DNA from: an uncultured Methanomassiliicoccales archaeon
GTDB taxonomy: Archaea; Thermoplasmatota; Thermoplasmata; Methanomassiliicoccales; UBA472
Direction of reading: 5' to 3'
Assembly (NCBI GenBank): GCA_963710685.1
Contig: CAVQBH010000011.1
Span: 11,258 to 75,257 of the forward strand
DNA: 64,000 nucleotides
The notes beneath the pieces were generated by a model that did not search any database, was not told the origin of the DNA, and saw nothing but the letters and a program-made list of their open reading frames with translations. Shown piece by piece: positions 9,175 to 53,004 of this stretch. The position numbers and the translations under genes were made by a program. Position 1 is the first letter of the stretch; each line of letters starts with the position of its first letter.

Positions 9175-9381
9175 ATGAATTTCATACCATCCGTTTCGTA
9201 TGAGCATGATGACGTTATGAACGCCAGTGGTATCGCATGATAGGCGATATTTGATAAACGAAGAACAGTTTCAATTCTCGATCCACCGACAGGATTTAAA
9301 GAGCAAAACCGATTACGATTCGTTCCAGGAGAATGCAACCGATTTCACTCTTGCGGTCATTCGGTCCTGGACGATCGATAG

Positions 9382-12006: not shown

Positions 12007-12305
12007 TCTGCATGCGGTCCGGCGCCCAATCACTGACGACATTGCCATGGCCGGCGGACCTGGCAATTCCATGACATGGGCAAAAGCTCCCGGCTGAAGC
12101 ATGCCGTTCGGACCTGTCCCCAGGAACTGGATGTTTCGGGGTTTGATATCCGAAAGGGTTCTTTTATTATCAGTTGACGGGTTTGATGGTCGAACGTTAG
12201 AGAAACGTCATTCTGGCTCGAATGCCCGGGAACTCGATCGAATAGACGTACGACGATGTTCAGAACTCACATTCCGCCGATAACATAGGTTGTCCAAACG
12301 GTAAC

Positions 12306-14879: not shown

Positions 14880-14943
14880 TCCGGTTCGGTTTCGGACCGG
14901 GATGGGTCCTAGGACCTAAACTTTCGCGAACAGCAGGAAGCGA

Positions 14944-21699: not shown

Positions 21700-22287
21700 A
21701 TGGTCAGAATGGAGGACATCATGGGGAAGGAGGTCATCTCCACCGATGCTATAGTCGTGGGAACGGTCGAAGGGGTCAGTATCGATCCGGACCACTGGCG
21801 TATCCCGGCGGTGCGACTCACCGTGACGAAGGGTCTAGAGATGGCCCTCGATAAGAAGAAGAAAACGCTCGGATCATCGAAGGCGTTCATCAACACCGGT
21901 GCGGTCAACGGTTTCACCGACACCATAACCCTCTCGGTCTCGATGACGGACATCAAGGGCGCGTTGGTGGCGGACGCACTGTGGCCGCTCAATTTCGGTA
22001 ATCTGACCGGAATGCGGGTCATCTGCAAGAAGGGTCGGCAGATCGGCTACGTGGACAACATCGTCTTCGATCCCAAGGACGACTGGAAGATCAACTACAT
22101 CGACGTCAGGCTGGACAAGGCGACCAGGGACGACCTGAACATCAAGAAGAGGATGATGTCCAACTCGTCCGGGATCGTGGTCAAGACCAGCGATATCCGG
22201 ACCATCGGGGACATGGTCATGCTGAACATCGACATCGACGAGCTGAAGATGTGGCTGGCGAACCGGCCCGCCTCGTTGAACAGATGA
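21700..22287 (+). CDS. PRC-barrel domain protein (two PRC barrels)
   Basis: Two copies of the PRC-barrel N-terminal pattern are present: MEDIMGKEVISTDAIVVGTVEGVSIDPDHWRI and LTGMRVICKKGRQIGYVDNIVFDPKDDWKI. The alternative start at ATG 21709 may be the true one. Confidence 0.75.
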   Translation: MVRMEDIMGKEVISTDAIVVGTVEGVSIDPDHWRIPAVRLTVTKGLEMALDKKKKTLGSSKAFINTGAVNGFTDTITLSVSMTDIKGALVADALWPLNFGNLTGMRVICKKGRQIGYVDNIVFDPKDDWKINYIDVRLDKATRDDLNIKKRMMSNSSGIVVKTSDIRTIGDMVMLNIDIDELKMWLANRPASLNR

Positions 22288-23230
22288 TCGGGGTGGAACA
22301 CCTCTGATCGAGACGGTCGAGCTCACCCGCAAATTCGAACGGACGGTCGCGGTCGAGGACCTGACCATCACCATCGAGGACGGAGAGGTCTTCGGTTTCC
22401 TCGGCCCGAACGGCGCAGGCAAGACCACCACCATCCGGATGCTGTGCTGCCTCATCGAGCCCACCTCCGGCCAGGCGTTCGTGGACGGCCTGAACGTCAA
22501 TGACAAAGAGTCTCGGATCAAGATCCGGCAGAACATCGGGCTGCTCCCGGAGAATCCGGGGCTCTACGAGTCGCTCTCCGCCTACCAGAACCTGGACTTC
22601 TTCGCCAGGATGTACGGCGTGCCGGCGGACAAACGTTCCCCGCGCATCACCGAGCTCCTCCAGGCCCTGGACATCCTGGACCGGAAGAACGATGCGGTGG
22701 GATCGTTCTCCAAGGGGATGAAGCAGAAGATCGCCATCGCCCGGGCGCTGGTGCATGACCCGAAATACCTGTTCCTGGACGAACCGACCTCGGGTCTCGA
22801 TCCGGTCTCCTCCATCACCGTCCGCAACTACCTCATGGACCTGAAGCGGGAGGGCCGCACCATCTTCATCAACACCCACCATCTGGACGAGGCCCAGCGG
22901 CTGTGCGATAAGATCGGCATCCTCAAGACCCGCCTGCTCTCCACCGGCTCGCCGGAAAAGCTGGCCAACGAGTTCTTCGGCAAGGTAACCATGGTCGAGC
23001 TGGACGTCGTGACGCCGGAGATCCTCCGGGTGGTCCAGGGTTCCAAGGGGGTCAAGGCGTTCCGCCAGGACGGCAACCGGCTGTTCCTCACCATCGATGA
23101 CCCGGTCACCGACAACCCGGCCATCGTCGCCGACCTGGTCCGTTCCGGGGCGCGCATCATCCACGTGGAAGAAGTGAAGAAGGGGCTGGAGGACGTCTAC
23201 CTGCGCATCCTGGGGGGCGAGGGCAAGTGA
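22284..23230 (+). pseudogene. ABC transporter ATP-binding protein; the start codon is out of frame with the body (one base apparently missing)
   Basis: The frame holding Walker A (GPNGAGKTTTIRML), the signature (FSKGMKQKIAIARAL) and Walker B (YLFLDEPTSGLD) is open from 22280 but has no ATG/GTG/TTG before 22439. ATG 22284 overlaps the PRC stop as ATGA but reads MIGVEHL* in another frame. Adding one C at CC 22301-22302 gives MIGVEHPLIETVELTRKF... Arithmetic: 947 nt + 1 = 948 = 316 codons. Confidence 0.8.
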
Positions 23231-24255
23231 TGCGCTTCGAGAAGATCTGGGCCATCGCCAGGAAGGAGTTCTCCGAGTTCCGCCGCAACCGGTACGTGCT
23301 TATGACCCTGGTGCTCATGCCCCTGATCATGACCATCGTGCTGCCGGTCGTCTACCTGGTGCCGGTGACGGCGCTGTCCACCCAGAACAACCGTCCGGTG
23401 CAGCTCTCATTGGACATACAGAACTCCTACGACGGGGCGAACCTCACCAGCGGGTACTTCAACAACACATCGTTCACCGACTGTCGGCTCACCAACGTCA
23501 TCCTGGAAGGGTGCCAGGTCCGGGGCGGTTACCTCAACTCCTCCCTCGTCCGGTCGTCCCAGGTCAACGATTCCTGGATGGATTCCACGATCCTCTATCG
23601 CTCCAACCTGAACAACGACACCCGCATCGATGCGGTCCTGGTGTCCAGCGTGGTCATCGGCGGCCAATCCGAGCTGGTCGGTACGCTGCAGCTGCTGATC
23701 AACCTGCTCATGCTGATGTTCATGGTGCTGCCTGCGGTCCTGCCGACCATCATCGCCTCCTACACCCTGGTGGGGGAGAAGGTGAACAAGAGCCTGGAAC
23801 CGCTGCTGGCCACCCCCACCACCGACCTGGAGCTGCTGGGAGGGAAGACCCTCAGCATATTCCTGCCCACGATGCTGGCCTCCTGGCTCTCGTTCGTCCC
23901 GTTCGTGGTACTGGTCGATCTCATCACCCAGCCCGCCTTCGGCTACTTCGTCCTGCCGAACGCGATGTGGATCCTGGCCATCTTCGTCATGGCCCCGCTG
24001 ATCGCGATGCTGAGCATCCTGTCCAACGTCATCGTCTCGTCGCGGGTCTCGGACGTCCGGAGCGCCCAGCAGATCGGCTCGCTGGTCGTCCTGCCGATCA
24101 TCCTCTTCTTCATCCTGATCCTGACCCAGTCGTCCTCCACCAGCGTCAATCTGATGGGGCTGTTCTCCGTGCTGCTCCTGGGGATCGACGTCCTGGTCCT
24201 TTTCCTGGCGCTGAAGGTATTCCGCCGCGAGGAAATATTGATACGGTGGAAATGA
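23230..24255 (+). CDS. ABC-2 type permease with pentapeptide-repeat extracytoplasmic loop
   Basis: ATG 23230 overlaps the ATPase stop as ATGA. It has the N-terminal RKEFSEFRRNRYVLMTLVLMPLIM typical of ABC-2/NatB-like permeases and five or more C-terminal TM helices. The loop between TM1 and TM2 consists of about 14 consecutive pentapeptide repeats. Confidence 0.8.
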   Translation: MRFEKIWAIARKEFSEFRRNRYVLMTLVLMPLIMTIVLPVVYLVPVTALSTQNNRPVQLSLDIQNSYDGANLTSGYFNNTSFTDCRLTNVILEGCQVRGGYLNSSLVRSSQVNDSWMDSTILYRSNLNNDTRIDAVLVSSVVIGGQSELVGTLQLLINLLMLMFMVLPAVLPTIIASYTLVGEKVNKSLEPLLATPTTDLELLGGKTLSIFLPTMLASWLSFVPFVVLVDLITQPAFGYFVLPNAMWILAIFVMAPLIAMLSILSNVIVSSRVSDVRSAQQIGSLVVLPIILFFILILTQSSSTSVNLMGLFSVLLLGIDVLVLFLALKVFRREEILIRWK

Positions 24256-24665
24256 CAAACGTTCCAGGGAGACCCAAGATGAACATGGAATCGGCGGAAT
24301 GGATGGCAAGGGCGGAGAGGGAGTACGACGCCGCCCTGGACATGTACAAGATGACCTATCACCGGTTCGCATTGATGCATGCCCAGCTGAGCCTGGTGTA
24401 CTCGCTGCGCGCGGTGGCCGTGGACAAGGGCTTCAGCCCGCACGAGACCATCGACCTGCCCGGTCTAACCCTGCTCGTCGCCACGCCCCCGGAGATCTCC
24501 AGCGTCGTCGAGGAGGTCAGGGGCGAGTGCGCACTGATCCACAAGGGCGAGTACTGGCAGGATCCTGACGGCGGGCGGGTGGGCAGATTGCTCGATTCCG
24601 CCGGGGAGGTCCTGGAATGGGCGGAGAACGCCCTCGACGACAGCTGCTGGTCGGAAAAGATATGA
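24252..24665 (+). CDS. HEPN-like helical protein
   Basis: ATG 24252 overlaps the permease stop as ATGA. The stretch SAEWMARAEREYDAALDMYKMTYHRFALMHAQLSLVYSLRAVAVDKGFSPHETIDLPGL follows the HEPN (PF05168-type) helix pattern (W..AE.....A....y..a...aqqa....lkA......H.l..L). The part of ORF 23511..24665 upstream of 24252 is shadow. Confidence 0.45.
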   Translation: MTNVPGRPKMNMESAEWMARAEREYDAALDMYKMTYHRFALMHAQLSLVYSLRAVAVDKGFSPHETIDLPGLTLLVATPPEISSVVEEVRGECALIHKGEYWQDPDGGRVGRLLDSAGEVLEWAENALDDSCWSEKI

Positions 24666-24986: not shown

Positions 24987-26321
24987 ATGCTATCCAAGGG
25001 ATTTATGATTCCTCTTTCCTTTGCCAGCCTCCCGGTCATTTCGATCACCTTCTTCGACAAGAAGAAAAGGTCCAGGAAGCGGAAGGAAGAGGACGAGATA
25101 GATGTACCTCCGGACGGCCTTTCGATCGAGGACCTGGAGAGCCTGGACCTGGACCAGCTTCAGTCCCATAGCGAGAAAATGTCGGAGAGGGGGATGTCGC
25201 CCGGCGACCCCGGTGTCATCACCATCCTCCCTGGCTGGTCCTTTATTCCCTGCATCACCATCGCCCTGCCCCGGAAGGGCCGGTTCGGCGACTCGCTGTT
25301 CGACACGGCGGAGGACGCCGAGATCATCGAGGGCATCAGGAAAGCGCCGTTACCGGACACGCTCTTCCAACCGGTCCGGGAACACGACCGTGCCCCCAAG
25401 GACCGGGACGTGGCCGAGTTCGATCCGCAGACCGACGCGATCATCCGTCCGGACGCCGATACCGAGAGCATCGTCACCCCCAAGGTGGCGCCCCTGCCGG
25501 CCAAGCCGGCCAAGAGGCCGGGGCCTGTCATGTCCGTCGGCAGCCCAGGACTGGACGACCTGGACCTGGAGGAGAAGGTCCCGGACGCTCTCGGTCCCGG
25601 CCTGGAAATGCCAGAGGACCATCTCATCAAACCGGAGAAGGCCGGACCGGACCGTACCACCATCGTCCCCGTCGGCATGGACCGGGACGACCTCGACATC
25701 ATGCTCGGCGGAGGGCTGCCCCGGGGCTCCATCGTCCTCATCGAGGGAAAGAAGGGTTCCGGCGTGGAACAATTCGTCCAGCGCCTCACGTTCGGGTTCC
25801 TGCAGAACGGGGTCGGGGTCACTTACATCTCCACCGAGAACGGCACCAGCGATTTCATCGAGCAGATGTACGGTTCCGGGTTCTTGATGGCGAACCACCT
25901 GCTGGGCAAGAAGATACTGTACATCCCCATCGATTCGCTGATACGCAAGGAACGGGCCACGGCCGGTTATATCGACCGTCTGATCCGCTCGCCCCAGCTG
26001 CTCAACGAGGTCATGATAATCGACCGGCTTTCGACCATGACGGCGAACGACCAGGACGAGAACGGGCATCTCAAGCTGCTGTCCTATCTCAAGGGCGCGG
26101 TCACCAAGAACCGGACCGTGATACTGGTCACCGACGAGAAGCAGAACGGCATCGAGACCATCAGGGAAGAGGCCAGGGCCCGTATGAGCCTGAGCGTGAT
26201 CGAGGACGGCCCGGAGACCACCCACTCGGTCCATGTCCTGAAGTATCCGGAGTCGGTCCACGAGGCCCAGCAGGAGATACGTTTCAAGATAGAACCGGGG
26301 CTCGGAATGGTCGTCCAGTAG
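24987..26321 (+). CDS. membrane-anchored RecA/KaiC-superfamily protein, FlaH/ArlH-like, with degenerate Walker A
   Basis: The N-terminus has hydrophobic segments (GFMIPLSFASLPVISITFF, VITILPGWSFIPCITIAL). A roughly 140-aa acidic, Pro-rich linker follows. The C-terminal domain reads DLDIMLGGGLPRGSIVLIEGKKGSGVEQFVQRLTFGFLQNGVGVTYISTENGTSDFIEQM, where the P-loop is GKKGSGVE instead of GxxGxGK[ST]. Confidence 0.65.
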   Translation: MLSKGFMIPLSFASLPVISITFFDKKKRSRKRKEEDEIDVPPDGLSIEDLESLDLDQLQSHSEKMSERGMSPGDPGVITILPGWSFIPCITIALPRKGRFGDSLFDTAEDAEIIEGIRKAPLPDTLFQPVREHDRAPKDRDVAEFDPQTDAIIRPDADTESIVTPKVAPLPAKPAKRPGPVMSVGSPGLDDLDLEEKVPDALGPGLEMPEDHLIKPEKAGPDRTTIVPVGMDRDDLDIMLGGGLPRGSIVLIEGKKGSGVEQFVQRLTFGFLQNGVGVTYISTENGTSDFIEQMYGSGFLMANHLLGKKILYIPIDSLIRKERATAGYIDRLIRSPQLLNEVMIIDRLSTMTANDQDENGHLKLLSYLKGAVTKNRTVILVTDEKQNGIETIREEARARMSLSVIEDGPETTHSVHVLKYPESVHEAQQEIRFKIEPGLGMVVQ

Positions 26322-26416
26322 TCCGCCGCAGCGGTTCCGGTTTTTGATAACTGGCTGATAACGTCTTTATAAACCGGCGCCACTCAAAAGTTGAACATTC
26401 TTGAGGGCTGAGATCG

Positions 26417-29400
26417 ATGCGTGAGACCCGTTCGCGATATGGTTCAGTATGCGTACTGGTGGCTTTCCTGCTCCTAGTGCCGCTGTTCTCGATGAACGTG
26501 GCCGCTGATTCGTTACCCGGTGCCCCCATCAACCCGATCGCGACCGGGGGTATCGCCCGGATCACGATCAGCTGGACGGCCCCGGCGAACACCGGGCCAG
26601 CAATCACCGGCTACACCATCTACAAGTGGACCAATTCAACGGACTTGGGCGCTTTCGAGGACCTCCCATCCACTCCCTGTACGTTCGTGGATTTGACGGT
26701 GCAGAACGGTCACACATACAACTACTACGTGACCGCCAAGAACAATGTGGGTGAGGGCAGTCCTTCAACAAATGTCTCTGCGGCGCCTCTTAGCTCCCCG
26801 TTCGCCCCGACCGGACTTGTATTGACCCCAGGCGTGGGCGGGATGTCCCTGAGCTGGAACCCTCCCTACAACGACGGCGGTTCTACGATCATCTGTTACC
26901 GTGTCTACCGCGGAACATCATCATCCACGCTCCTCTATCTGAAGAACACCACCCAGACCTCCATCATCGACGGCGGCCTGAGCAATGGCCAGACCTATTA
27001 CTACCAGATCACGGCGGTCAATATCGTGGGAGAAGGGGCCAAGAGCGATACGGTGCATAGAACGCTATCCTCCCCACCAGGCCCGCTCCTGGACTTTCAG
27101 GCGGTCGCCTCCGCATCCCGGGTCAATCTGACCTGGACCGCCCCGTCCGACAACGGCGGTTCGGCCATAACCGGTTACCTGATCTATCGTTCGCTGATCT
27201 CCGGACAGGAGACGTTCCTGCAGCAGGTCACCTCCAGCACCTCCTACCAGGATTCCAACCTGGCGAACGGGGTCACTTACTACTACCAGGTCTCGGCCGT
27301 CAACTCCGCCGGGGAAGGGCAGAGGTCCAATGAGCTGGCGCGCGTCCCGACCGCCGTTCTTGGACCTCCCACGTCGGTCACCGCGACGCCAGCCAATTCC
27401 TCCGTTTATCTGACCTGGGCCGCCCCGGCGAACACCGGAGGTTCTCCCGCCTCATCGTACAAGATCTACCGCGGCACGTCCGCCACCAGCTTCCTGTTCC
27501 TGGCCTCCGTCAACCAGACCAGCTACCGGGACATGAACCTCACCAACGGACACGGATATTTCTACAGGGTCAGTTCGGTGAACGCCGTCGGCGAAGGTCT
27601 CCCGGGCGCGCCGATCCCCTCCACGCCGGTCAACACCGCCTCGGTCCCGTTCCAGTTGAACTCGGTCAGCGGGATCAGGAGCGTGGCATTGAGCTGGTCG
27701 ACACCGGCCGACATCGGCGGGGCCAGCATCTCCACCTACCGCATCTACCGCAGCCTCTCCGGGACCGGAACTTTCGATCTGATCGCTTCGGTTTCGGGCA
27801 CCACGTACACCGACAAGCAGCTGAACAACGGGACCCTTTACTTCTACCACGTTACCGCCGTCAACTCCGCCGGAGAAGGCCCGGCGGCGGCCACCAGCTC
27901 CACCACCTTCCCGCTCCCGGACCCACCGGTCCTCAACGCCAGCATGAGCGGGATGAACGTGCATCTGGCCTGGTCCGCCTGTCCCAGCGCCATATCCTAC
28001 CGCATCTACCGCGGGGACGTCTCCGGGGGGCAGACGTATCTGAGGTCGGTCCTCACCAACAGCTACCTGGACGGGCCGTTCGTGTCCGGCCGGACGGTCT
28101 TCTACCTGGTGACCGTGGTCAATGCCACCGGGGAAAGCCTGCCGTCGAACGAGGCCAGCGTCAAGATCGTGTCCCTGCCCTCGGCCCCGCTCAATCTCAC
28201 CGCCTCCATCGCCTGGTCCGAGGCGGTCCTGAGATGGGAAGCACCGCTGAACTTCGGGTCCGCCTCGACCATCACCTACCAGGTGCTGCGCGGTCTGTCC
28301 CCGGGCTCGGAGCAGGTCATCGGGACCTGCGATACATCAGCGTACAATGATTCCACCATCGACCCGGCCCAGCAATACTACTACCAGGTGAAGGCCGTCA
28401 ATCAGGCCGGCGCCGGTGCCGCCTCCAACGAGGTGGGCGTGTACTACCGGAACGTCTTCACCGCATCCGTGCTGACGGTCATTCCAGGCCTCGAACGGAT
28501 AACCCTCCAATGGACCGTTCCCACCGATACGGACGGGAACCCGCTCACCGGCTACCAGGTGTACCGGAGGGGCACCGGCGCTCCGGAGGCGTTCCTGATC
28601 GGGGAGAACATCACCGCGCTGACCGACACCGGTGTGGTGGCCGGGCAGGTCTACTACTATGAGGTCAAGGGAGTGACCGAGGCCGAGCTGGGCCCGGCGT
28701 CCAACGAGGTGAACGCGACGCCGTTCTCGTTCCCGGGGACCCCGGTCTCGTTCTCCGCGGCAGCTTCAGCGGACTCGGCCATCCTGAACTGGTCCGCCCC
28801 GGTCACGGACGGAAATTCGTCCGTGATCGGCTATCACGTCTTCCGCGGAGGGGCGGCGGGCAACCTGAGCCAGGTGGCGACCGTTTCCGGCCTCAACTAC
28901 ACGGACACCGGCCTGGTGGCGGGCACCACCTACTATTACGAGGTCACCGCCTTCAACGCCGCCGGCGACGGTCACGCCTCCTCCGAGACGTCCATCACGG
29001 CGCCGGTGCTCAACGATCCGCCGGTGGGACTGACCGCCACCGTCTCCGGGGGCAAGATCACGCTGGAATGGAACCCGCCCGCCGGGACGAACGTGTTCAC
29101 GTACAGCATATACCGCGGCAACGGTTCGGGGGTGGAGGTCTTCCTGACCAACTTTCCGGGCACCAGCTGGGTGGACAGCAATGTGAGCGACGGCCAAACA
29201 TACTACTACCGGGTCTCCGCCACCACCATGCATGGGGAGAGCCAGATGTCCGAGGAAGCGGTGGTGACGACGGTGGGAGCACAGAACCAGATACAGGCCG
29301 GCATTCCGGACCAGCTATGGTTCCGCATGGTCATCATAATGACGATCCTGGTGGTGGGCTTCTTCTCCTTCGTCGTATTCGTCAGGAACGGGACGCTCCG

Positions 29401-29419
29401 GGTGAATATGGGCAGGTGA
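26417..29419 (+). CDS. cell-surface protein, signal peptide + 10 fibronectin type III repeats + C-terminal TM anchor
   Basis: Signal-like start (VCVLVAFLLLVPLFSMNVAA). Ten units of the form W..P...GGS.I.GY.IYR......L..V...SY.D..L.NG.TYYY.V.AVN..GEG..SNE. C-terminal helix (MVIIMTILVVGFFSFVVFV) followed by a basic tail. Confidence 0.85.
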   Translation: MRETRSRYGSVCVLVAFLLLVPLFSMNVAADSLPGAPINPIATGGIARITISWTAPANTGPAITGYTIYKWTNSTDLGAFEDLPSTPCTFVDLTVQNGHTYNYYVTAKNNVGEGSPSTNVSAAPLSSPFAPTGLVLTPGVGGMSLSWNPPYNDGGSTIICYRVYRGTSSSTLLYLKNTTQTSIIDGGLSNGQTYYYQITAVNIVGEGAKSDTVHRTLSSPPGPLLDFQAVASASRVNLTWTAPSDNGGSAITGYLIYRSLISGQETFLQQVTSSTSYQDSNLANGVTYYYQVSAVNSAGEGQRSNELARVPTAVLGPPTSVTATPANSSVYLTWAAPANTGGSPASSYKIYRGTSATSFLFLASVNQTSYRDMNLTNGHGYFYRVSSVNAVGEGLPGAPIPSTPVNTASVPFQLNSVSGIRSVALSWSTPADIGGASISTYRIYRSLSGTGTFDLIASVSGTTYTDKQLNNGTLYFYHVTAVNSAGEGPAAATSSTTFPLPDPPVLNASMSGMNVHLAWSACPSAISYRIYRGDVSGGQTYLRSVLTNSYLDGPFVSGRTVFYLVTVVNATGESLPSNEASVKIVSLPSAPLNLTASIAWSEAVLRWEAPLNFGSASTITYQVLRGLSPGSEQVIGTCDTSAYNDSTIDPAQQYYYQVKAVNQAGAGAASNEVGVYYRNVFTASVLTVIPGLERITLQWTVPTDTDGNPLTGYQVYRRGTGAPEAFLIGENITALTDTGVVAGQVYYYEVKGVTEAELGPASNEVNATPFSFPGTPVSFSAAASADSAILNWSAPVTDGNSSVIGYHVFRGGAAGNLSQVATVSGLNYTDTGLVAGTTYYYEVTAFNAAGDGHASSETSITAPVLNDPPVGLTATVSGGKITLEWNPPAGTNVFTYSIYRGNGSGVEVFLTNFPGTSWVDSNVSDGQTYYYRVSATTMHGESQMSEEAVVTTVGAQNQIQAGIPDQLWFRMVIIMTILVVGFFSFVVFVRNGTLRVNMGR

Positions 29420-29609
29420 CGACCATTCCCGTCGGTCGTTACAACAGCGACCGAGCCGGTCGGGATCGGATGGACCATGGTCACCCAGATCCCGTCGTCA
29501 CGACGGCCGTCCTTCTTTTTCTCGACGGTTTCATGACCGGGCGAATCCGGAATCAGGCCTGATACTTACATCAGGCCATTTATAAGGAAAAATAGCCGCT
29601 CAAGCTTCA

Positions 29610-32600
29610 ATGCACCGGAAATACCATAGTGCTCACTTTCTCCTCCTGGCACTGGCACTATTGTTACCCGGATTGCTTTTACCGTTCACCTTCCTCCCCG
29701 TGACGTCGGCATCTCCGGTCACGGAAGAGCCCGCCGGCACCTCGGTGCAGACCCATGCCATGACCGCCGAAGAGGCGGCACAGATGGAGCTGGTCTCCGG
29801 CACCTACGTGAATGGGACGGATTACAACCAGATCGTCGACGGTCACGGCACCGGGCTGGCCCCGCCGACGTCCGCGGAGTACACGGAAATGGTCGGGAAC
29901 GTGCAGGTCACCGATTCGGTGCAGACCGACCTCATGTCCTCGTCATCCTACGACATCTCCACCCAGCCCTATTTCCCGGCGGTCGGGGACCAGGGCAGCC
30001 AGGGCTCATGCGCCGCCTGGGCCATGACCTATTACGACTACGGATACCTGGAGGCCCGGGACAATAACTGGACCGACGCCTCCACCGGCAACCCCGCGCA
30101 TCTGATGAGCCCGGCCTGGACCTACAACCGCGCCGACGGCGGCGTGGACCGCGGTACGTTCATGGACACGGTCGCCGACATCATCAAGGACTGGGGGGTG
30201 GCCAGCATGGCCACTATGCCGTACAACGCCAACGACCTCCAGGGATGGGGCAGCGAGGCGGCCGCCCGGGAGGCGCCCCTTAACCGGGCGCTGGACGTCC
30301 ATACCATTCCCTACAGTGATTCCGACCCGAACACCGCGTTCAGCACGATCAAGGGACTGTTATCGTCCAACCTCCCGGTGACGTTCGCCCTGGACGCGAA
30401 CATGCTCACCAATTCACTGGCAGATAACATCATCACTGCCAACGAGTACAACTCGAACGTGATGAACCATGCCCAGACCATCGTTGGATACGATGACGCC
30501 AAGACCGATGGCGTGCATGCGGACGTGGGCGCGTTCAAGATCGTCAACTCCTGGGGCAAGAACTGGGGCAACCACGGCTACTACTGGATCTCCTACGACG
30601 CGATGAAGAAGATCGGCGACAATCTGTTCCTGACCTACATCACCGACCGGCCGGCCTACCAGCCCAGTCTGCTCGCCATCATCGAGTTCAACAACGCCCC
30701 CACCCGCGAAACGACCATCACCGTCGGGGTCGGGAACGTCCCCGGAAAGAACAAGTTCGTCCCCTATTTCGAGGAGAACTACGACGCCTCGGTGACCGCC
30801 ACCTTCCCTTCCTTCCTGGTCATCGACATGACCGACCTTCAGTCAAAGTATCAGGCGAACAATACCGGTTTCTACCTGACGCTGGGGGCGACCACCACCG
30901 CCGGCAACGTGTCCTCGTTCCGCATCGAACAGTACCTGAACGGCTACTCGAACGCCGCCACGCAGGTGTCCGGCCAATCCGCGGACCTGCCCCGGGTCAA
31001 CCCATGTTCGGTGAATGTGTCCATGACGCCCTACGTCACGCTGACACCGCAGGCGGCCTTGGACAACGCCGGCCTGTCGTTCATCGGTTCTGGGAATGCC
31101 CAGTGGTCCCCGGAGACCCGTGATTACCACTACGGCGGCAGCGCCCTGCAGAGCGGGAACGTGGGCAACAACGACCGGAGCGCCATCCAGACCACCGTCC
31201 TGGGGCCATCGACGGTCTCGTTCTGGTGGAAGGCTTCCACGCAGGCCACCGACCTGGTCCGGTTCTATGTCGACTCGGTCAACCGGGCCAACGCCAGCGG
31301 GGCACTCCCCTGGACCCAGGTCAGCCTGGCGATTGGCAACGGGACCCACGTGCTCAAATGGGAATACGCCAAGGATGCCGCGATGGCCGGGAACCAGGAC
31401 ATGGCCCTGATCGATCAGGTGGTGGCCGTGACCGGCAACGCCGTTCCCACCGCGCCCTTCGGTCTGGCGGCGACCGTCGCCACCAGCATTCAGCTGAACT
31501 GGTCCGCACCTTCCTCCAACGGCGGGACGCCCGTGACCTCCTACAATGTCTATCGCGGGATCTCCACCGGGACCGAATCGCTGCTGGCCAGCGTGCCGGC
31601 GTCCAGCCTGGTGTACACCGACCCCAGCGCCCTGGTGAACCAGAACTACTTCTACCAGGTAACCGCGGTGAACTCCGTCGGCGAATCCTCCCGTTCCAAC
31701 GAGGCCAGCGGGAGGTTGCCGATCCCGGTACCATCCGCCCCCTCCTATCTGACGGCGGTGGCCGGTGGTTCGTACATCGACCTTTCCTGGTCCTCGAACG
31801 GCGCCAGTCTGACCGGTTTCCACCTTTATCGCGGTACCGCCGCGAACGGTGAGACGCTGCTCCAGACATTATCATCGTCGGCCCGTTCCGCCCGTGACGG
31901 CACCGCCGTCGCCGGCACGACCTACTACTATCGGATGGACGCCTTCAACAGCCAGGTATCCTCCTCGTACAGCAACGAGGTTTCCGCCCGGGTAGCAGTG
32001 GTTCCGGGCGCGCCGACCGCCCTCACCGCCGTGACCGGTACCGGGATTCACCTGACCTGGACTGCCCCGGTCGACAACGGCGGCTCCCCGGTCCTCGGCT
32101 ACAAGGTGTACCGAGGAACCTCGGCCGGCGGGGAGACGGCCACTCCCATCGGCACCCCGGGGACGACCGTTTATGACGATCTTACCGCTGCCGTCGGAAC
32201 CAGATACTACTACGTGGTGAAGGCCAACAACGCCATCGGCGATTCCGCCGCCAGCAACGAGGCGTTGGCCCGAATGCCCACTGTCCCGGGCGCACCCATC
32301 TCCCTGAACGCCACGGCCTCCGGGAACCATACCCACCTCAGTTGGACCGCTCCGGACAATGGAGGGGCAGCCATAAGCCGATACGACATTTACCGCGGCA
32401 CGTTCGCCGGCGGTGAGAGCGCGGTGGCGCTCGGAACGACCGGAACCACCTCCTACGACGACCTGTCCGCGGTCGTCGGGATCCAATACTATTACGTGGT
32501 CCGGGCCCTGAACCCGGCGGGAGAATCCGCTTCGAGCAACGAAGCGTCCTGCCAGATCATCCATGCCCCGGACTCCCCCTCCTCCCTGACGGTCAGGGTC

Positions 32601-35492
32601 ACGCTCGGGCATGACTCGCTCTCGTGGACCGCCCCACTGTCCAACGGTGGCAGCCCGCTGACGTCCTACGAGGTGCTGCGCGGCCCAACCGCAGATCCGG
32701 CCACGCACGTCCAGATGGCCGCTGTCATGATCCCCCAATATGACGACACCCAGATCACCCTCGGCCAGACCTACTATTACTCGGTGAGGGCGGTCAACAT
32801 GGTGGCTTCGTCGTCCGCGAGCAATGTCGTCTCCGTCATGGTCAAGGGGCTGCCGGGCGCGCCGAACACTCCGACCGCCCAGATGTCGGACGGATCGGTC
32901 CTGCTCTCCTGGTCGGCACCGGTCAGCGATGGTTATTCCAACATCACCGTTTACAAGGTGTACCGGTCCGTGACGTCCGGGGCCGAGTCGTTCACCGCCG
33001 CTGCCATCGGGACGGCGTATATCGATGGAGGACTGACCAACGGCCTTGTTTATTACTATAGGATAACCGCGGTCAACGCGATGGGCGAAAGCTCACCCAG
33101 CATCGAGGTCCAAGCGTCCCCAGGGTCGGTCCCGGGCGATCCGGTCATCACCGGGACGACCTTCTCCCTGGGTACGGTGGGATTGTCCTGGTCGCTGCCG
33201 GACGACGGAGGAAGGACGATCGCCGGGTTCTCCGTCTACCGCGGTAATACGTCGAGCTTCTCCTCCGCAACGCTGATGTCACAGTACATCGCCGGTAACG
33301 TCTATCAAGATCCCACGGCCACCGTCGGGTCCACCTACTATTACTTCGTGACGGCCGCGAACTCGATAGGCACTTCGGGTCCCGGTTCGTCCGGCCCGTT
33401 CTACGTGTCCGGTTCCCCGTCCCCACCCTTTGCACTTACCGCTTCGATCACCTCCGATCATGTCCTACTGAGCTGGTCCGCCCCCGATTCCACCGGTTCA
33501 TCGTCGGTGTCGGGATACTACGTCTACCGTTCCCTCGCCCCCGGGCAGGGAACGGTCATCGCGCACCTCGGGAACGTTCTATCGTACAGCGATGTGGCGG
33601 TCATACTAGGTGAGACGTACTACTACAGCGTGTCGGCCGAGAACCAGAACGGTACCGGTCCCCTTTCTGCCGAGGTCCGCGCCGCCTATGTCCTGGCGCC
33701 CGGCTCTCCCTCCGGTCTGACGGTCACCGGATCGACCGGGACCGCCAGTCTGACCTGGTCCGCCCTGGTCCAGAACGGCATCCCCGTCTCCGGCTATACG
33801 GTACGTGTTTGGACCTCGGGAGTGGCGCCCTCCATAGCTGGACAGGTCGGACCGGATTCGCTTTCATTCGTCATCGGTGGCCTCACCGACGGCGTTCAGT
33901 ACTGGTTCACCGTTTCCGCGTTCAATCAGGCGGGAGAGGGGCCGGCAGGTCCTTCCGTGAAGTGTACGATCGGTTCGGCCCCCGGTGCGCCGGCAGCGGT
34001 GGCAGTGTCGGTGGGGAACGGTTCCATTTCCGTCTCCTGGACGCCCCCGACGGCCAACGGCGGCCTCAGCGACCTGGCCTACCACGTGTGGCGGTCGACC
34101 ACCGGCGCCAGCACCTTGCTTGTCGACCTGGGCGGTTCCGCCAGGACATACACCGATCGCACGGTCGTACCGGGCACCACCTACCGCTACACCGTGACCG
34201 CTTCGAACCTAATCGGATCCAGCACACCGGCCGGCCCGGTCGAGGCGGTGGCGGCCACGGTGCCGGGGGCACCATCGTCGGTCACGGTGGCATCGGACTC
34301 CTCATCGGTGCTGGTCTCCTGGAACGCCCCCACGGACGACGGAGGGGTCGGGCTAACGGGTTTCAACCTCTTCCGTTCCAGTGGGGCCGGATGGACGCTG
34401 CTCTCCCCGTCGATCGGCCCGACGACCTTGGTATACCGCGACCGGACGGTGTTGGGCGGGGTCACGTACCAATATCGGGTGGCCGCGGCCAACGCCATAG
34501 GGGAGGGGGTGCTGTCGGAGGTATCGGACAGCGTTTCCACCGTGTCGGTGCCGCCCGCCTTCAGCGTGACCGCCATCGTCGGCGACTCCAACGTCACGCT
34601 CACCTGGACCATCCCTTCAGGGGACGGTGGACCGTCGTTCCCCCTCACCATACTCCGGACCGACTCCCAGACCGGTTCGGTCACCACGATGAACGCCACC
34701 TCGGAGGATGAGACTTTCACCGACCATGGCGTGGTCCCGGGACAGGACTACACCTATGTGGTCAAGGCCACAAACGCGGCCGGGTCAGCCATTGCCGATG
34801 GGGTGACCGTGCATGCCCTGCGGACGGTGGCCATGAAGGTCCAGGTCGTTCCGTTCCAAACGGTCATATCAGTCTCCGGCGTCGTCACGGACCTTTCCGG
34901 TCTGGGGATGGGAGGTCAAAAGGTCATCCTCTACCGCAGCAGCAACATGAGCGGGGATTGGACCGAGGAGGTGCAGCTGACCACCGCGGCCAGTGGAAAG
35001 TTCTCATATCTGATGAACAGCAGTGACGGAATATTGAGCATAAGGGTGGTGCTCACCGATGATGGAACCCACCTTTCACGGATCATCGAGCAGACGGTAG
35101 GCTCCATCCGACTGAGGGACGGCGACACGGCCAGCATAATGTCCAACAGCACGATGTCCGCTGTGGCGTTGAGCAGCACCGGGGATCTGATCACGGTCAC
35201 CCTGGAAAAGGCGGGCACGGCGAACATCTCGATTCCGAAGGATTCGATCGAGAGCCTGGACCTGGTAGGGGTGTCGATCGACGGCAAGAAGGGTAATTAT
35301 CAGGTGACCGAGACCGGAGACCGATACATCTTCAGCTTGGAAGACGTGAAGGCGGGACAAACGGTCTCGATGAGCATCGGACACACTTCCTCAGAGGGGG
35401 GCCTTCCTTTCCTGATAGAGATGACATTGATCGTCGGCGCATGCCTTGGTGCCCTTTTCCTATGGCGCGGCATCAAGAAACGGCGGGCATGA
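29610..35492 (+). CDS. giant surface protein: signal peptide + papain-family (C1) cysteine peptidase + beta-sandwich domain + 12 FN3 repeats + C-terminal TM anchor
   Basis: The C1 catalytic motifs are present: GDQGSQGSCAAWAM (Cys codon 30009-30011), HAQTIVGYDD, and FKIVNSWGKNWGNHGYYWISYD. Next comes SFWWKASTQATDLVRFYVDS...GTHVLKWEYAKDAAMAGNQDMALIDQV. Twelve FN3 units (YFYQVTAVNSVGES ... YTYVVKATNAAGS) follow, then LIEMTLIVGACLGALFLWRGIKKRRA. Confidence 0.85.
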   Translation: MHRKYHSAHFLLLALALLLPGLLLPFTFLPVTSASPVTEEPAGTSVQTHAMTAEEAAQMELVSGTYVNGTDYNQIVDGHGTGLAPPTSAEYTEMVGNVQVTDSVQTDLMSSSSYDISTQPYFPAVGDQGSQGSCAAWAMTYYDYGYLEARDNNWTDASTGNPAHLMSPAWTYNRADGGVDRGTFMDTVADIIKDWGVASMATMPYNANDLQGWGSEAAAREAPLNRALDVHTIPYSDSDPNTAFSTIKGLLSSNLPVTFALDANMLTNSLADNIITANEYNSNVMNHAQTIVGYDDAKTDGVHADVGAFKIVNSWGKNWGNHGYYWISYDAMKKIGDNLFLTYITDRPAYQPSLLAIIEFNNAPTRETTITVGVGNVPGKNKFVPYFEENYDASVTATFPSFLVIDMTDLQSKYQANNTGFYLTLGATTTAGNVSSFRIEQYLNGYSNAATQVSGQSADLPRVNPCSVNVSMTPYVTLTPQAALDNAGLSFIGSGNAQWSPETRDYHYGGSALQSGNVGNNDRSAIQTTVLGPSTVSFWWKASTQATDLVRFYVDSVNRANASGALPWTQVSLAIGNGTHVLKWEYAKDAAMAGNQDMALIDQVVAVTGNAVPTAPFGLAATVATSIQLNWSAPSSNGGTPVTSYNVYRGISTGTESLLASVPASSLVYTDPSALVNQNYFYQVTAVNSVGESSRSNEASGRLPIPVPSAPSYLTAVAGGSYIDLSWSSNGASLTGFHLYRGTAANGETLLQTLSSSARSARDGTAVAGTTYYYRMDAFNSQVSSSYSNEVSARVAVVPGAPTALTAVTGTGIHLTWTAPVDNGGSPVLGYKVYRGTSAGGETATPIGTPGTTVYDDLTAAVGTRYYYVVKANNAIGDSAASNEALARMPTVPGAPISLNATASGNHTHLSWTAPDNGGAAISRYDIYRGTFAGGESAVALGTTGTTSYDDLSAVVGIQYYYVVRALNPAGESASSNEASCQIIHAPDSPSSLTVRVTLGHDSLSWTAPLSNGGSPLTSYEVLRGPTADPATHVQMAAVMIPQYDDTQITLGQTYYYSVRAVNMVASSSASNVVSVMVKGLPGAPNTPTAQMSDGSVLLSWSAPVSDGYSNITVYKVYRSVTSGAESFTAAAIGTAYIDGGLTNGLVYYYRITAVNAMGESSPSIEVQASPGSVPGDPVITGTTFSLGTVGLSWSLPDDGGRTIAGFSVYRGNTSSFSSATLMSQYIAGNVYQDPTATVGSTYYYFVTAANSIGTSGPGSSGPFYVSGSPSPPFALTASITSDHVLLSWSAPDSTGSSSVSGYYVYRSLAPGQGTVIAHLGNVLSYSDVAVILGETYYYSVSAENQNGTGPLSAEVRAAYVLAPGSPSGLTVTGSTGTASLTWSALVQNGIPVSGYTVRVWTSGVAPSIAGQVGPDSLSFVIGGLTDGVQYWFTVSAFNQAGEGPAGPSVKCTIGSAPGAPAAVAVSVGNGSISVSWTPPTANGGLSDLAYHVWRSTTGASTLLVDLGGSARTYTDRTVVPGTTYRYTVTASNLIGSSTPAGPVEAVAATVPGAPSSVTVASDSSSVLVSWNAPTDDGGVGLTGFNLFRSSGAGWTLLSPSIGPTTLVYRDRTVLGGVTYQYRVAAANAIGEGVLSEVSDSVSTVSVPPAFSVTAIVGDSNVTLTWTIPSGDGGPSFPLTILRTDSQTGSVTTMNATSEDETFTDHGVVPGQDYTYVVKATNAAGSAIADGVTVHALRTVAMKVQVVPFQTVISVSGVVTDLSGLGMGGQKVILYRSSNMSGDWTEEVQLTTAASGKFSYLMNSSDGILSIRVVLTDDGTHLSRIIEQTVGSIRLRDGDTASIMSNSTMSAVALSSTGDLITVTLEKAGTANISIPKDSIESLDLVGVSIDGKKGNYQVTETGDRYIFSLEDVKAGQTVSMSIGHTSSEGGLPFLIEMTLIVGACLGALFLWRGIKKRRA

Positions 35493-35780
35493 GACGAAAC
35501 CGAACCGCAAGGCTCTCGATAGACCTATTCTCTTTCTCGTTCGTCGATCAATGATCTGCGATGATTGCCGTCAGACGACCCAACTCATTCACCTCGGGAT
35601 CCACGAGACACGGTGCATCGTAGCGATCGTTACCTTTTGTGTCGAAGGGTAGGGTCGACAGGACCGGTCATTATCGATAACGATCGTATGAACCGATAAA
35701 TAACGGTCTTGATAACAAATGGGGTAGGCGAGGCCTCTCCAAACTACCCAGATGTCTGATAATGCGATGTTGCACCCCAA

Positions 35781-36216
35781 AATCCATGGAATATTTCTGC
35801 TCGTTCATTATGATAATAATCATATTTCCAAAACAATAACAATCATTTGTAATGAATAATTATATAATGCTGGCAAGCAAATTGTTGGTCTATATAACGT
35901 ACAAAATGGCATCCAAACTCCAGGAAATATCTTTCAATAATTTATAGAATATTTAATCCAGTCGAAATTGCTTTACTATTTGACTCAGGACTTCAATATG
36001 AATAATATCTAGGTCATTATTGTTTAATGATTATGCCAGTAATAATATAGACTATGATTAATAATCGAAAAATCGGACCTACCTTAAAAGCTCTGTCCTG
36101 ACCAAACTATATATATCTTTTTCCTCAATTGTTCAGCAGTGAAAATAGCTAAGGAATAAGGCGGCTGTGGAAATCACGATCGACTTGTCCCTGAAGCTAA
36201 AGGGAGGAGGGGTTAA
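35781..36216. other. AT-rich island / extended promoter region upstream of the Ig-repeat gene
   Basis: About 430 bp that are visibly A/T-dominated (runs such as ataataatcatatttccaaaacaataacaatcatttgtaatgaataattatataatg) in an otherwise GC-rich window. Contains several TATA-like boxes (ctatatatatcttttt at 36108-36123) and a GGAGGAGG Shine-Dalgarno at 36203-36210, just before ATG 36217. Confidence 0.6.
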
Positions 36217-37527
36217 ATGAATAGATCTGGAGCTCTAAAGCTCACTGCAATAGTGGTAGTATTCGTCCTATGTTTGTCGAGCCTATACATAGGCCTGCAA
36301 TTGTCACAAAAGGGAAAGTCTTCGCCTAGCATAGGTGATGTCTCGCCTGTGCCTCCGACGGATGTACCCTTGAACACAGGAGAAAGCCCGGCTGTCTCCG
36401 TTCCTAGCAGCCCTTCGGTCTCTGTGCCTAGTACCGGCGATTCCACGGTCCAACAGCCGGTGACCAATCAAGATGTGGGCACCACAACCACCGATCCCAT
36501 AGTCGTTGGGCCGGTCGCCTCCACCACGGTCACCCAGCTTTCAGCCGATGGCATCATCCTGGGCAACTACGTCTATGACACGGCGATCGTATCTGGCCAG
36601 GCCGGAATCTCGACGCCGACCGGAACGGTTACCTTCGAGGTCAAGGCCCCAGGCGCAGCATCATTCGTGCCCTACGGGACCTCGGGCCCGGTCGCCATTG
36701 ACGTGACCGGAAAGGCGGTCTCAGAGAACTACTATCCAACGATCGTGGGATCATACTATTTCCTGGCGATCTACAGCGGAGATTCGAACTACAAGTGCGG
36801 ACAAAGCCCGGCTGACGCCGAGCTCCTCAACGTAGCGAAGGCATCAACCTTCACCTCGACCTCCCTGAACGGGAACGAAGGGCCGTTCATTCTTGGAAAC
36901 TCGGTCTACGACACCGCCAAGGTGATCGCACTCGACAGTGCATTGCCGACCCCGACCGGAACGGTCACATTCCAGGTCAGCGCCGATAACGGTGCCTCCT
37001 GGACCATGATCGGATCCCCCGTCGCCCTGGTCGATGGACAGGCCGCCTCCCAGACCTACCAGCCATCGATGGCTGGGCAATATGAGTTCCGGGCCCTGTA
37101 CAGCGGTGATTGTAACTTCGTCTGCTCGAGCAGCGGAGTATGCGACGAGCCCCTGAAGGTCCTGATGGCCCAAACGACGACGACCACGAACTTCGGACCG
37201 TGCGAGATCACCGTCGGCCAGTCTGTGAAAGACAACGCCACGGTGATCGGAGTGGCAGGATCCCCAGCGCCGTCCGGCACTGTGACCTACTACATCAGCA
37301 CTGACAGCGGAGCGTCCTGGACCATGATCGGATGTGGACCGGCCACCTTGGATGCCAATGGAAAGGCACAATCTGACTGGTACACGCCAGCCACCTCGGG
37401 ATACGTCTTCTTCAAGGCGGTCTACAGCGGCGACAACAACTATCAGCCATCGGTGAGCGACATCTCCACCGAGCGTCTGATGGTCGATTGCGCCTCATCG
37501 GTCGACACGTCATCCGCGCTGTCCTAA
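36217..37527 (+). CDS. secreted/anchored Ig-like domain repeat protein
   Basis: N-terminal TM/signal (LKLTAIVVVFVLCLSSLYIGL) and a Ser/Pro/Val linker. Three to four units of roughly 110 aa follow: LGN.VYDTA.V.......PTGTVTF.V.......W...G.PV......G.A.S..Y.P...G.Y.F.A.YSGD.NY. Confidence 0.75.
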   Translation: MNRSGALKLTAIVVVFVLCLSSLYIGLQLSQKGKSSPSIGDVSPVPPTDVPLNTGESPAVSVPSSPSVSVPSTGDSTVQQPVTNQDVGTTTTDPIVVGPVASTTVTQLSADGIILGNYVYDTAIVSGQAGISTPTGTVTFEVKAPGAASFVPYGTSGPVAIDVTGKAVSENYYPTIVGSYYFLAIYSGDSNYKCGQSPADAELLNVAKASTFTSTSLNGNEGPFILGNSVYDTAKVIALDSALPTPTGTVTFQVSADNGASWTMIGSPVALVDGQAASQTYQPSMAGQYEFRALYSGDCNFVCSSSGVCDEPLKVLMAQTTTTTNFGPCEITVGQSVKDNATVIGVAGSPAPSGTVTYYISTDSGASWTMIGCGPATLDANGKAQSDWYTPATSGYVFFKAVYSGDNNYQPSVSDISTERLMVDCASSVDTSSALS

Positions 37528-52901: not shown

Positions 52902-53004
52902 TAAGAAGGGCCGCGTCCGTGATTTGAACACGGGTCAAAGGATCCACAGTCCCACAGGATGCCAGGCTACCCCAACGCGGCCATGCTGGAAGTTGTGGAA
53001 CGCG

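Follow-up and report, generated by a model that had tools for sequence, protein, structure and literature searches.

What does a relative of the archaellum protein ArlH (FlaH) do beside giant surface proteins, once the residues needed for ATP hydrolysis have been lost? The question was raised by a locus of an uncultured Methanomassiliicoccales archaeon (GTDB lineage Thermoplasmatota; Thermoplasmata; Methanomassiliicoccales; UBA472). It lies in a stretch of 64,000 nucleotides of contig CAVQBH010000011.1 (assembly GCA_963710685.1, positions 11,258 to 75,257 of the forward strand), the whole of which is called the window here. ArlH is regarded as a dedicated archaellum protein that acts through ATP binding; the canonical protein hexamerises on ArlI and is essential for archaellation. 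An earlier note on the window had listed four co-directional genes, coding for an ArlH-like protein with a dead P-loop (designated pseudo-ArlH), two anchored giants built of FN3 units and an Ig-repeat protein. All four were found in the list of open reading frames and their translations, on the plus strand (Table 1).

By this analysis pseudo-ArlH is a branch of ArlH that has become a pseudoenzyme, and both its architecture and its genomic partner are new. The assignment of its C-terminal domain came from profiles, fold and tree. The two best NCBIfam models were ArlH (NF052589, 154.3 bits) and FlaH (NF006320, 157.1 bits), and the models of KaiC, RadA and RadB gave 36 bits or less. The two scores were below the curated equivalog cutoff for ArlH/FlaH (154/157 vs 215 bits). 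The Pfam KaiC family (PF06745) matched aa 235–443 with 42.7 bits, the gathering threshold being 26.6.

The best sequence match in the PDB was FlaH of M. jannaschii (4wia, E 1.9e-32), with an alignment running end to end. In this alignment IEGEESTGKSVLCQRL of pseudo-ArlH was opposite IEGKKGSGVEQFVQRL of MjFlaH, the Walker A of which is GEESTGKS. An AlphaFold model built on a 50-sequence alignment had a per-residue confidence (pLDDT) of about 90 for aa 225–444, and below 60 for the N-terminal 224 residues. Foldseek placed 4wia at the top rank (TM-score 0.91, root-mean-square deviation 2.0 Å, 223 columns), followed by FlaH of S. acidocaldarius (4yds, TM-score 0.82) and KaiC domains (about 0.7).

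Among 1.84 billion representative proteins, the closest canonical relative (P0030) was 38% identical in the domain and had an intact GSGKS. Its gene sits in an arlH-arlI-arlJ (arlH-T2SSE-T2SSF) operon. The model scores, the match to 4wia in sequence and fold, and the operon of P0030 showed that the domain of pseudo-ArlH was derived from a genuine ArlH. The FlaH/ArlH-like layout described in the earlier note was thus borne out, and the domain was placed within the KaiC/FlaH clade, on the ArlH/FlaH side.

The translation contained the Walker A remnant GKKGSGVE, as the earlier note had read it. Close orthologues of pseudo-ArlH numbered 23, with 63–98% identity and lengths of about 440–460 aa where complete. 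In an alignment of 20 sequences (A1: the window protein and 19 orthologues, 70–98% identity), the site read G[KR]KGSGVE throughout, with the Val-Glu replacement in 20 of 20. Glu284, Asp346 and Lys256 were invariant in the same alignment. The loss of the Lys and Ser/Thr was therefore confirmed as fixed in every aligned orthologue, and none of the 20 sequences had an intact GxxGxGK[ST].

The ratio of nonsynonymous to synonymous substitutions (dN/dS) of the window gene was computed against seven orthologues. It was 0.06–0.18 for the ArlH-like domain, 0.08–0.21 for aa 1–33 and 0.16–0.44 for the linker between them. The fixed replacement and the purifying selection together indicated a fixed pseudo-ATPase, and a local mutation or a decaying pseudogene was ruled out. 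ArlH with the single Walker A substitution K33A no longer binds ATP, autophosphorylates or interacts with ArlI (10.1101/2021.03.19.436134). Judged from its sequence, and as far as the canonical site is concerned, pseudo-ArlH is a conserved pseudo-ATPase.

The loss was not confined to the close orthologues. In an exhaustive profile search the window's clade formed one cluster at 50% identity, and the canonical ArlH proteins of about 230 aa came next. The weaker matches included long proteins with degenerate P-loops, namely P0047 (GKKGAETR), P0059 (GEKGKRAR) and P0107 (GRKGEATR); the Walker A of P0125, P0135 and P0173 was also degenerate. The P0047 subgroup is distant, with 25–32% identity to pseudo-ArlH of the window.

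A census of the Walker A and catalytic residues in 124 family representatives showed that K[ST] was lost in every long relative without a REC domain. The Glu of the KaiC/ArlH catalytic Glu/Gln position, for which the catalytic role is taken from 10.1101/2021.03.19.436134, was lost in the P0047 group, and both this Glu and the Walker B Asp were lost in the P0125 group. The N-terminal extension was common to all the long groups. The FlaH-like proteins fused to REC domains formed a separate group outside the family.

In a neighbor-joining tree of the domain, all pseudo-ArlH sequences were monophyletic inside the ArlH radiation (129/200 bootstraps), and the P0047 and P0125 groups were joined in 200/200. 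The organism was named for eight of the 18 fetched loci; all eight were Methanomassiliicoccales and covered all three groups, and the other loci were metagenomic. The nearest relatives of the window were metagenome-assembled genomes (MAGs) from soil and peat, two complete chromosomes of about 2.55 Mb among them. A metagenome scan with a three-sequence alignment (A4) gave three loci. Going by these sequences, the long pseudo-ArlH proteins are a small family, of Methanomassiliicoccales wherever the organism is named, in which the P-loop has been lost throughout.

The new genomic partner was the FN3 protein. The window's clade was represented by eight distinct loci (L001/L008, L002, L003, L004/L009, L005, L006, L007 and L010), and in all eight an FN3 orthologue lay directly downstream of the pseudo-ArlH gene, as in the window. 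These orthologues were 45–59% identical to that of the window and 1650–1680 aa long where intact, and the C-terminal anchor was conserved. The giant with a C1 peptidase and FN3 units came next in seven of the eight (L001, L002, L003, L004, L005, L007 and L010). The contig of L006 ends inside the FN3 gene, so no protease giant was visible there.

In the P0047 group, an FN3 protein with a signal peptide was encoded immediately downstream in 5/5 loci (L011, L012, L015, L018 and L019). The flanking genes in this group were entirely different from those of the window's clade. An FN3 gene was thus immediately downstream in 13/13 loci of the two subgroups, and the FN3 partners were only 36–46% identical between them. 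The different flanks and the divergence of the partners showed that the FN3 adjacency had survived a long divergence. The neighborhood proposed in the earlier note was therefore found in other genomes, and was kept even at 25–32% identity of pseudo-ArlH.

All the FN3 partners ended in a transmembrane segment and a short tail with alternating hydrophobic residues (G[IM][IL]S[FL]GK in the P0047 group, FVRKGxxRVxRxx in the window's clade). The FN3 protein of the window had a Sec signal peptide, ten FN3 units of about 93 aa and a C-terminal transmembrane segment, followed by a basic tail of 11 aa (RNGTLRVNMGR). It contained 21 N-x-S/T sequons, where 12 were expected. The protease giant had 12 FN3 units, a C-terminal region resembling a beta-sandwich, a transmembrane segment and the tail RGIKKRRA. 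Its Pfam fn3 score was 228.7 bits. Nine units passed alone in each of the two giants, and the totals of 10 and 12 were counted by period and Trp/Tyr motifs. These results agreed with the description of both anchored proteins in the earlier note.

The peptidase motifs were read in the translation as QGSQGSCAAW (Gln/Cys), NHAQTIVGY (His) and VNSWG (Asn), which we took by eye to supply the papain catalytic Gln-Cys-His-Asn. Between the peptidase and the FN3 array of this giant lies a domain of about 270 aa (30627–31529, aa ~340–640; also delimited as aa ~350–620). It was conserved among the orthologues, mostly with 61–73% identity (39% in the fragmented copy of L003), and matched no Pfam family at E<=1.

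The architecture of pseudo-ArlH differs from that of ArlH by its N-terminal arm. The gene has a ribosome-binding site (GGGAGGTG) just upstream and a conserved N-terminus, aa 1–23 being nearly invariant among the orthologues in the alignment. The linker that follows the polybasic patch consists of 191 aa (aa 34–224), with a pI of 4.3, 22% Asp+Glu and 13% Pro, and its pLDDT was mostly below 60. The earlier note was right about its acidity but not about its length, which had been given as about 140 aa. Several short linker motifs were invariant in the alignment (DVPPDGL, AE..EI..GI..AP.PD..F, DV..FDP.TDAIIRP and DLDLDL). The N-terminal ~230 aa, linker included, matched no Pfam family at E<=1.

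Two stretches of the arm were hydrophobic, with Kyte-Doolittle means over 19 residues of 1.76 (aa 5–23) and 1.81 (aa 76–94). Basic residues follow each of them, KKKRSRKRK the first and RKGR the second. Both stretches thus prefer an N-out/C-in orientation, and a simple two-helix hairpin is therefore impossible. The second stretch aligned with RRLTLFHEHRLLPRVSIVFP and RRIVLFARSRILPTITIRLKP of distant relatives, with an invariant Pro. In these relatives the sequence was alternating and partly charged, for example RRIVLFARSRILPTITIRLKPSKDE. AlphaFold placed strands at aa 17–21, 77–80 and 89–93, at low confidence. From the alignment and the model we concluded that the second stretch is a conserved beta-hairpin motif, not a membrane helix. 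A two-helix membrane hairpin was ruled out by the charge distribution and the distant homologues.

In the window's clade the first stretch, together with the polybasic patch, could serve as the one N-terminal anchor or else bind peripherally to the membrane. It contains the first of two related motifs (LPxIxIxF, aa 15–23), which is common to P0047, P0059 and P0107. The P0047 group had two copies of the motif (LPxIxIxFP), and the P0125 group clearly kept the second only. Examples such as LPRINISFPKK and RRLTLFHEHRLLPRVSIVFP aligned with the two hydrophobic stretches of the window protein. The P0047 group had a weaker hydrophobic N-terminus, and the P0125 group had none. The membrane anchor of the earlier note was thus retained as a possibility for aa 1–23 with the patch, and dropped for the second stretch.

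Table 1. Positions of pseudo-ArlH, its parts and its neighbors, numbered from the first nucleotide of the window
Feature	Position	Strand	Basis or remark
Pseudo-ArlH (long FlaH-like pseudo-ATPase), 444 aa	24987..26321	+	Open reading frame and translation
Hydrophobic N-terminus MLSKGFMIPLSFASLPVISITFF, aa 1–23	24987..25055	+	Possible N-out/C-in membrane anchor
Polybasic patch DKKKRSRKRK, aa 24–33	25056..25085	+	80% Lys+Arg, pI 11.8, conserved
Acidic, proline-rich, mostly disordered linker, aa 34–224	25086..25658	+	Composition, AlphaFold, alignment
Conserved beta-hairpin motif VITILPGWSFIPCITIALPRK, aa 76–96, second LPxIxIxLP motif	25212..25274	+	Conserved in distant relatives
ArlH/FlaH-fold (RecA/KaiC superfamily) pseudo-ATPase domain, aa 225–444	25659..26318	+	NCBIfam, Pfam, PDB, Foldseek
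Degenerate Walker A GKKGSGVE, aa 254–261	25746..25769	+	Canonical GxxGxGK[ST]; Lys to Val260, Ser/Thr to Glu261
Glu284 (YISTEN), KaiC/ArlH catalytic Glu/Gln position, retained	25836..25838	+	Invariant in alignment; census
Asp346 (IIDRLS), Walker B aspartate, retained	26022..26024	+	Invariant; aligned to MjFlaH IFDSIS
FN3 fibrillar surface protein, 1000 aa	26417..29419	+	Pfam fn3 (PF00041) 244.6 bits; conserved partner gene
Papain-like protease giant, 1960 aa, surface-anchored	29610..35492	+	Signal peptide, Peptidase_C1, FN3, transmembrane segment
Peptidase_C1 domain, aa 113–332	29946..30605	+	PF00112 52.8 bits vs cutoff 20.7
AT-rich intergenic gap, 724 bp, between the conserved trio and the Ig-repeat gene	35493..36216	.	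Sequence composition
N-terminally anchored Ig-repeat protein, 436 aa, 3x Big_3_5	36217..37527	+	Pfam 74 bits; N-terminal transmembrane segment
PRC-barrel protein	21700..22287	+	Pfam; upstream syntenic
ABC ATPase	22439..23230 (listed frame; open from 22280)	+	Pfam; upstream syntenic
ABC-2 permease	23227..24255	+	Pfam; upstream syntenic
HEPN-domain protein, between ABC operon and pseudo-ArlH gene	24279..24665	+	Pfam HEPN 36.7 bits

The connection of the family with the archaellum was examined in the window and in the relatives. No archaellum or type IV pilus gene (archaellin, T2SSE, T2SSF) was found among the 48 predicted proteins of the window that were scanned with Pfam, nor in any locus fetched for the P0047 subgroup or for the clade of the window. 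The statement of the earlier note that no archaellum genes are nearby thus held for the window, and a third subgroup does adjoin an archaellum operon. The gene of P0135 (L021, the Methanomassiliicoccales MAG GCA_038740345.1) is convergent to a complete archaellum operon at L021 2473–10280. This operon contains two Flagellin_arch-type genes (200 and 146 aa), FlaC_arch, a canonical ArlH of 242 aa, ArlI (T2SSE) and ArlJ (T2SSF), then a response regulator, with CheR nearby. P0125 had the same response-regulator and T2SSF neighbors. From the position of the third subgroup, the family probably began as an arlH paralogue next to archaellum genes, and it may still act on the archaellum machinery.

The operon of L021 belongs to an order whose cultured species are non-motile and are described without archaellum genes. 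The cultured M. alvi has no archaellum genes, wall or S-layer, and carries surface fibrils of 300 nm (PMC10673518). Methanomassiliicoccus is without type IV pilus secretion ATPases (PMC4858521). In the search for arlI or arlJ elsewhere in genomes of the window's clade, the 120 matches listed for the ArlI query from L016 reached down to 49% identity, and an ArlI of the same order, 45% identical to that query, lies below this floor; the search with ArlJ returned five matches.

The earlier note had asked whether 24987–35492 might be a single transcript. Two TATA-like boxes were read by eye, TTTATAAA near 26366 ahead of the FN3 gene and TTTATAAGG near 29580 ahead of the protease gene, and in both places a run of T followed the preceding gene. 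These elements suggested that the genes of the conserved trio have separate promoters, with TATA boxes of their own. The Ig-repeat gene stands behind a gap of 724 bp, and its G+C content at third codon positions (GC3) was 0.71, vs 0.82–0.84 for the trio. A single four-gene unit was therefore doubtful.

What pseudo-ArlH does can be approached from these neighbors. We tentatively read it as a non-catalytic, membrane-proximal adaptor or scaffold for the FN3 envelope proteins, a function taken from synteny and a little less likely than not. The protein, which evolved from the archaellum motor protein ArlH, would no longer work through ATP binding or autophosphorylation. The hydrophobic N-terminus and the polybasic patch would keep it against the membrane on the cytoplasmic side. 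Contact with the FN3 protein, at its membrane anchor and its short basic tail in the cytoplasm, would be made by the conserved strand motifs, by the acidic arm or by an oligomer like that of ArlH; in the window's clade the surface papain-like protease may be contacted as well. In this way the FN3 and protease proteins would be positioned, clustered or stabilized on the surface of a cell that, judged from the cultured relative Methanomethylophilus alvi, would have neither wall nor S-layer. A further step, that ArlH-derived rings or arrays under the membrane use strand motifs and acidic arm to hold the anchors of FN3 fibrils and of a protease borne on fibrils, as the cytoplasmic base of an ATP-independent envelope appendage or adhesion system not recognized before, appeared unlikely.

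Several points weigh against the scaffold. The only functional link between pseudo-ArlH and the FN3 proteins is the adjacency of their genes; the TATA-like boxes and T-runs between these genes suggest separate transcripts; and the FN3 tails, of only 8–15 residues, offer little to bind. The third subgroup lies beside an archaellum operon and does not adjoin an FN3 gene in the same way. The hydropathy of the putative anchor is borderline (1.76), there are two prolines in the segment, and the pLDDT of the arm is below 60. The most distant subgroup lacks any hydrophobic N-terminus. The retained Glu284 and Asp346 and the invariant Lys256 leave room for residual ligand binding.

The neighbors of P0135 and P0125 and the nesting of the family in the ArlH radiation would be expected of a regulator linked to an archaellum or type IV pilus. 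Such a protein would be a motor inhibitor, stator or adaptor; its docking partner would be ArlI, canonical ArlH or a response regulator from elsewhere in the genome, and the FN3 adjacency would reflect surface-gene clustering only. We considered this a serious alternative but somewhat unlikely, as no archaellum or pilus gene was found in the window or in the loci of the two FN3-adjoining subgroups, cultured members of the order lack these genes, and the ArlH-ArlI interaction needs the ATP binding that is lost here. The tight FN3 adjacency across 25–32% identity is also hard to call a coincidence. The same adjacency bears on the possibility that there is no functional link at all, that pseudo-ArlH serves the cytoplasm in some unrelated way, perhaps as a chaperone or an oligomeric scaffold, and that the synteny was inherited within one order. 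The genes appear to have their own promoters, the named sources all belong to one order, and C-terminally anchored surface proteins are common in this genome, all as would be expected without a link. On the other side, the flanks differ completely between the subgroups, yet FN3 is downstream in 13/13 loci, and the adjacency has outlived a divergence that left the partners 36–46% identical. We judged the absence of a link to be distinctly unlikely.

The residues retained in the pocket could instead belong to a nucleotide-sensing, KaiC-like signaling protein, in which the pocket would still bind a nucleotide or some other phosphorylated ligand non-canonically, by way of Lys256, Glu284 and Asp346, and relay its state to the envelope proteins. 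All three are invariant, the glycine-rich loop GxKGSG is kept, and KaiC-like ATPases have been proposed as signaling hubs of archaeal surface systems (PMC4858521). But the two positions in contact with the beta/gamma-phosphate and Mg2+ have both changed, one to the acidic residue Glu, and K33A alone is enough to abolish binding in ArlH. Moreover, the Glu is lost in the P0047 group, which has the same architecture and FN3 neighbor, and the P0125 group is also without the Walker B Asp. A function shared by these relatives therefore cannot depend on the nucleotide site. The nucleotide-sensing scaffold of the earlier note was accordingly not favored, and we hold it to be improbable. An exported or pilin-like protein, in which a class III signal (MLSKG/FM) is used or both hydrophobic stretches place the dead domain outside in direct touch with FN3, would explain the N-terminus, which fits the FlaFind pattern followed by a hydrophobic run, and a dead P-loop would make sense extracellularly. 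It is scarcely credible: the eight Lys/Arg after the first run and the RKGR after the second favor the cytoplasm for the C-side, the sole N-x-S/T sequon of the domain is not conserved, and in distant relatives the hydrophobic runs are charged strand motifs or absent.

The N-terminus MLSKG/FMIPLSF (24987–25055) has in its own right the form of the archaeal class III (prepilin-like) pattern, and its Lys4 and Gly5 are conserved in at least 90% of the orthologues. The pattern that it matches is [KRDE][GA][ALIFQMVED][ILMVTAS], followed by a hydrophobic run. The polybasic patch behind that run and the cytoplasmic type of the domain weigh against export or processing.

Comparison with known systems placed pseudo-ArlH closest to ArlH/FlaH. 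It has the same single-domain RecA/KaiC fold from end to end (TM-score 0.91, 30–38% identity), keeps the Walker B Asp and the Glu at the catalytic position, and is nested among canonical ArlH proteins. It differs in the absence of the Walker A Lys-Ser/Thr (and scores 154 against the 215-bit cutoff), in an N-terminal extension of 225 aa on what in canonical ArlH is a protein of about 230 aa, and in its place, which in the window and the eight loci is not an arlH-arlI-arlJ operon but next to FN3 giants.

The archaeal KaiC-like ATPases (PF06745), for which a regulatory role alongside type IV pilus systems has been proposed (Makarova et al. 2016, PMC4858521), belong to the same superfamily and likewise have a genomic tie to cell-surface structures. 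Their P-loops are intact, they are thought to autophosphorylate, and many have two domains, whereas pseudo-ArlH, a catalytically dead protein of a single domain, stands much nearer to ArlH than to KaiC. The likeness to ArlX and ArlC/D/E is in concept only, that of a membrane-proximal, non-enzymatic organizer of the base of an appendage; ArlX has an N-terminal transmembrane segment and a cytosolic domain. No sequence relationship between these proteins and pseudo-ArlH was detected, which makes this an analogy and not membership.

A general precedent is given by RecA-fold pseudo-ATPases such as the Rad51 paralogues, in which nucleotide turnover is lost or reduced and which serve as structural adaptors for an active relative. 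Pseudo-ArlH belongs to another clade and, unlike these DNA repair proteins, to another process, and no active partner was seen here. The FN3 giants are likely the equivalent, by analogy, of the adhesin-like giant surface proteins of Methanomassiliicoccales (PMC10673518), which are also long, repeat-built and membrane-anchored in a wall-less archaeon. The adhesin-like proteins have Flg_new/List-Bac repeats rather than FN3 repeats, and no ArlH-like partner has been reported for them; one of the giants here has, in addition, an apparently intact papain-like protease.

No description of the family or of its FN3 linkage was found in the literature searched on FlaH/ArlH homologues and paralogues and on FlaH in Methanomassiliicoccales. 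Databases name the pseudo-ArlH proteins simply 'FlaH', and matches to PF06745 are used by some studies as evidence of motility. As pipelines call the members 'FlaH', an inference of motility may be wrong for this family, and the annotation may mislead here.

An offshoot of ArlH that gave up ATP binding, gained an arm, stayed under selection and kept its place beside giant surface proteins lets one see, as in a natural experiment, how a component of a motor turns into a pseudoenzyme. Its existence suggests that a part of the archaellum motor was re-used for a job at the cell surface, which would surprise archaellum specialists. To our knowledge, almost nothing is known of the envelope biology of wall-less methyl-reducing methanogens. 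The locus offers a first handle on how surface fibrils and proteases are organized in such methanogens of soils, peat and guts, and a testable entry into the envelope biology of Methanomassiliicoccales.

The genes around the trio were also examined. The Ig-repeat protein, with its three Big_3_5 units, stood behind an AT-rich island as the earlier note had described. The central ~360 bp of the gap (35493–36216) had about 25% G+C, vs about 60% for the genome. No repeats, Rfam family or tRNA were found in it, so no known RNA or repeat element could be assigned. The gap may contain a promoter or, given the lower GC3 of the Ig-repeat gene, mark where an acquired gene borders on its surroundings. 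Among the fetched loci, most of which stop within the protease gene, none had an orthologue of the Ig-repeat gene, and its membership of the conserved module is doubtful.

Upstream, orthologues of the PRC-barrel, ABC ATPase and ABC-2 permease genes (73–89% identity) were present on the same strand in L004–L007 and L010. L001 and L003 are cut at their 5' ends, where the ABC-2 permease alone was matched, and an ABC_tran gene was called at the edge of L001. None of the three genes was found upstream in the fetched DNA of L002. An ABC-2 transporter also follows the FN3 gene in L011 and L015. The permeases belong to different ABC-2 subfamilies without a mutual BLAST match, and since those of L011 and L015 are unrelated to that of the window, a shared ABC transporter was rejected as a third part of the module. 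The HEPN gene was near the ABC genes in L001–L004.

In the ABC ATPase, the Walker A (GPNGAGKTT) and a conserved N-terminus (LIETVELTRKF) are encoded before the first in-frame ATG, GTG or TTG at 22439. Open from 22280 on, the frame extends across the stop codon of the PRC-barrel gene (22285–22287), and the same was seen in L006 at 2492–2700. The position of these motifs implied a non-canonical start, translational coupling or a frameshift.

A search of the module proteins with PADLOC gave a single generic RecA-like match of 20 bits, to mad8, and none for the other six proteins. An anti-phage defense system was ruled out in the absence of a significant match.

Among the sequences outside the family, the REC-FlaH-like fusions (P0087, P0114, P0117, P0137, P0138, P0150, P0158, P0163 and P0171) had an intact GKS. 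A different change was seen in P0032, P0033, P0055, P0098 and the protein encoded at L021 7080–7808, which are otherwise canonical ArlH and have the Walker A GSGRS (Lys to Arg). One such ArlH sits within a complete archaellum operon.

Other surface and signaling genes were noted in the window. Five large histidine-kinase and receiver proteins with PAS, GAF and CHASE4 domains are clustered upstream at 2420–17863, and similar PAS-REC genes were found near the pseudo-ArlH gene in L001, L004, L013 and L015. At 45001–46884 lies the gene of another surface protein with a C-terminal anchor, which has BspA-type LRR_5 repeats, a single FN3 unit and Big_7; in L001 an LRR_5 protein lies directly upstream of the pseudo-ArlH gene. 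Two paralogous proteins, each with a 7TM (HisKA_7TM-like) region and DUF835, are encoded at 48912–50177 and 51684–52901, and flank the genes of RtcB (50149–51603, minus strand) and tRNA-His (52908–52981).

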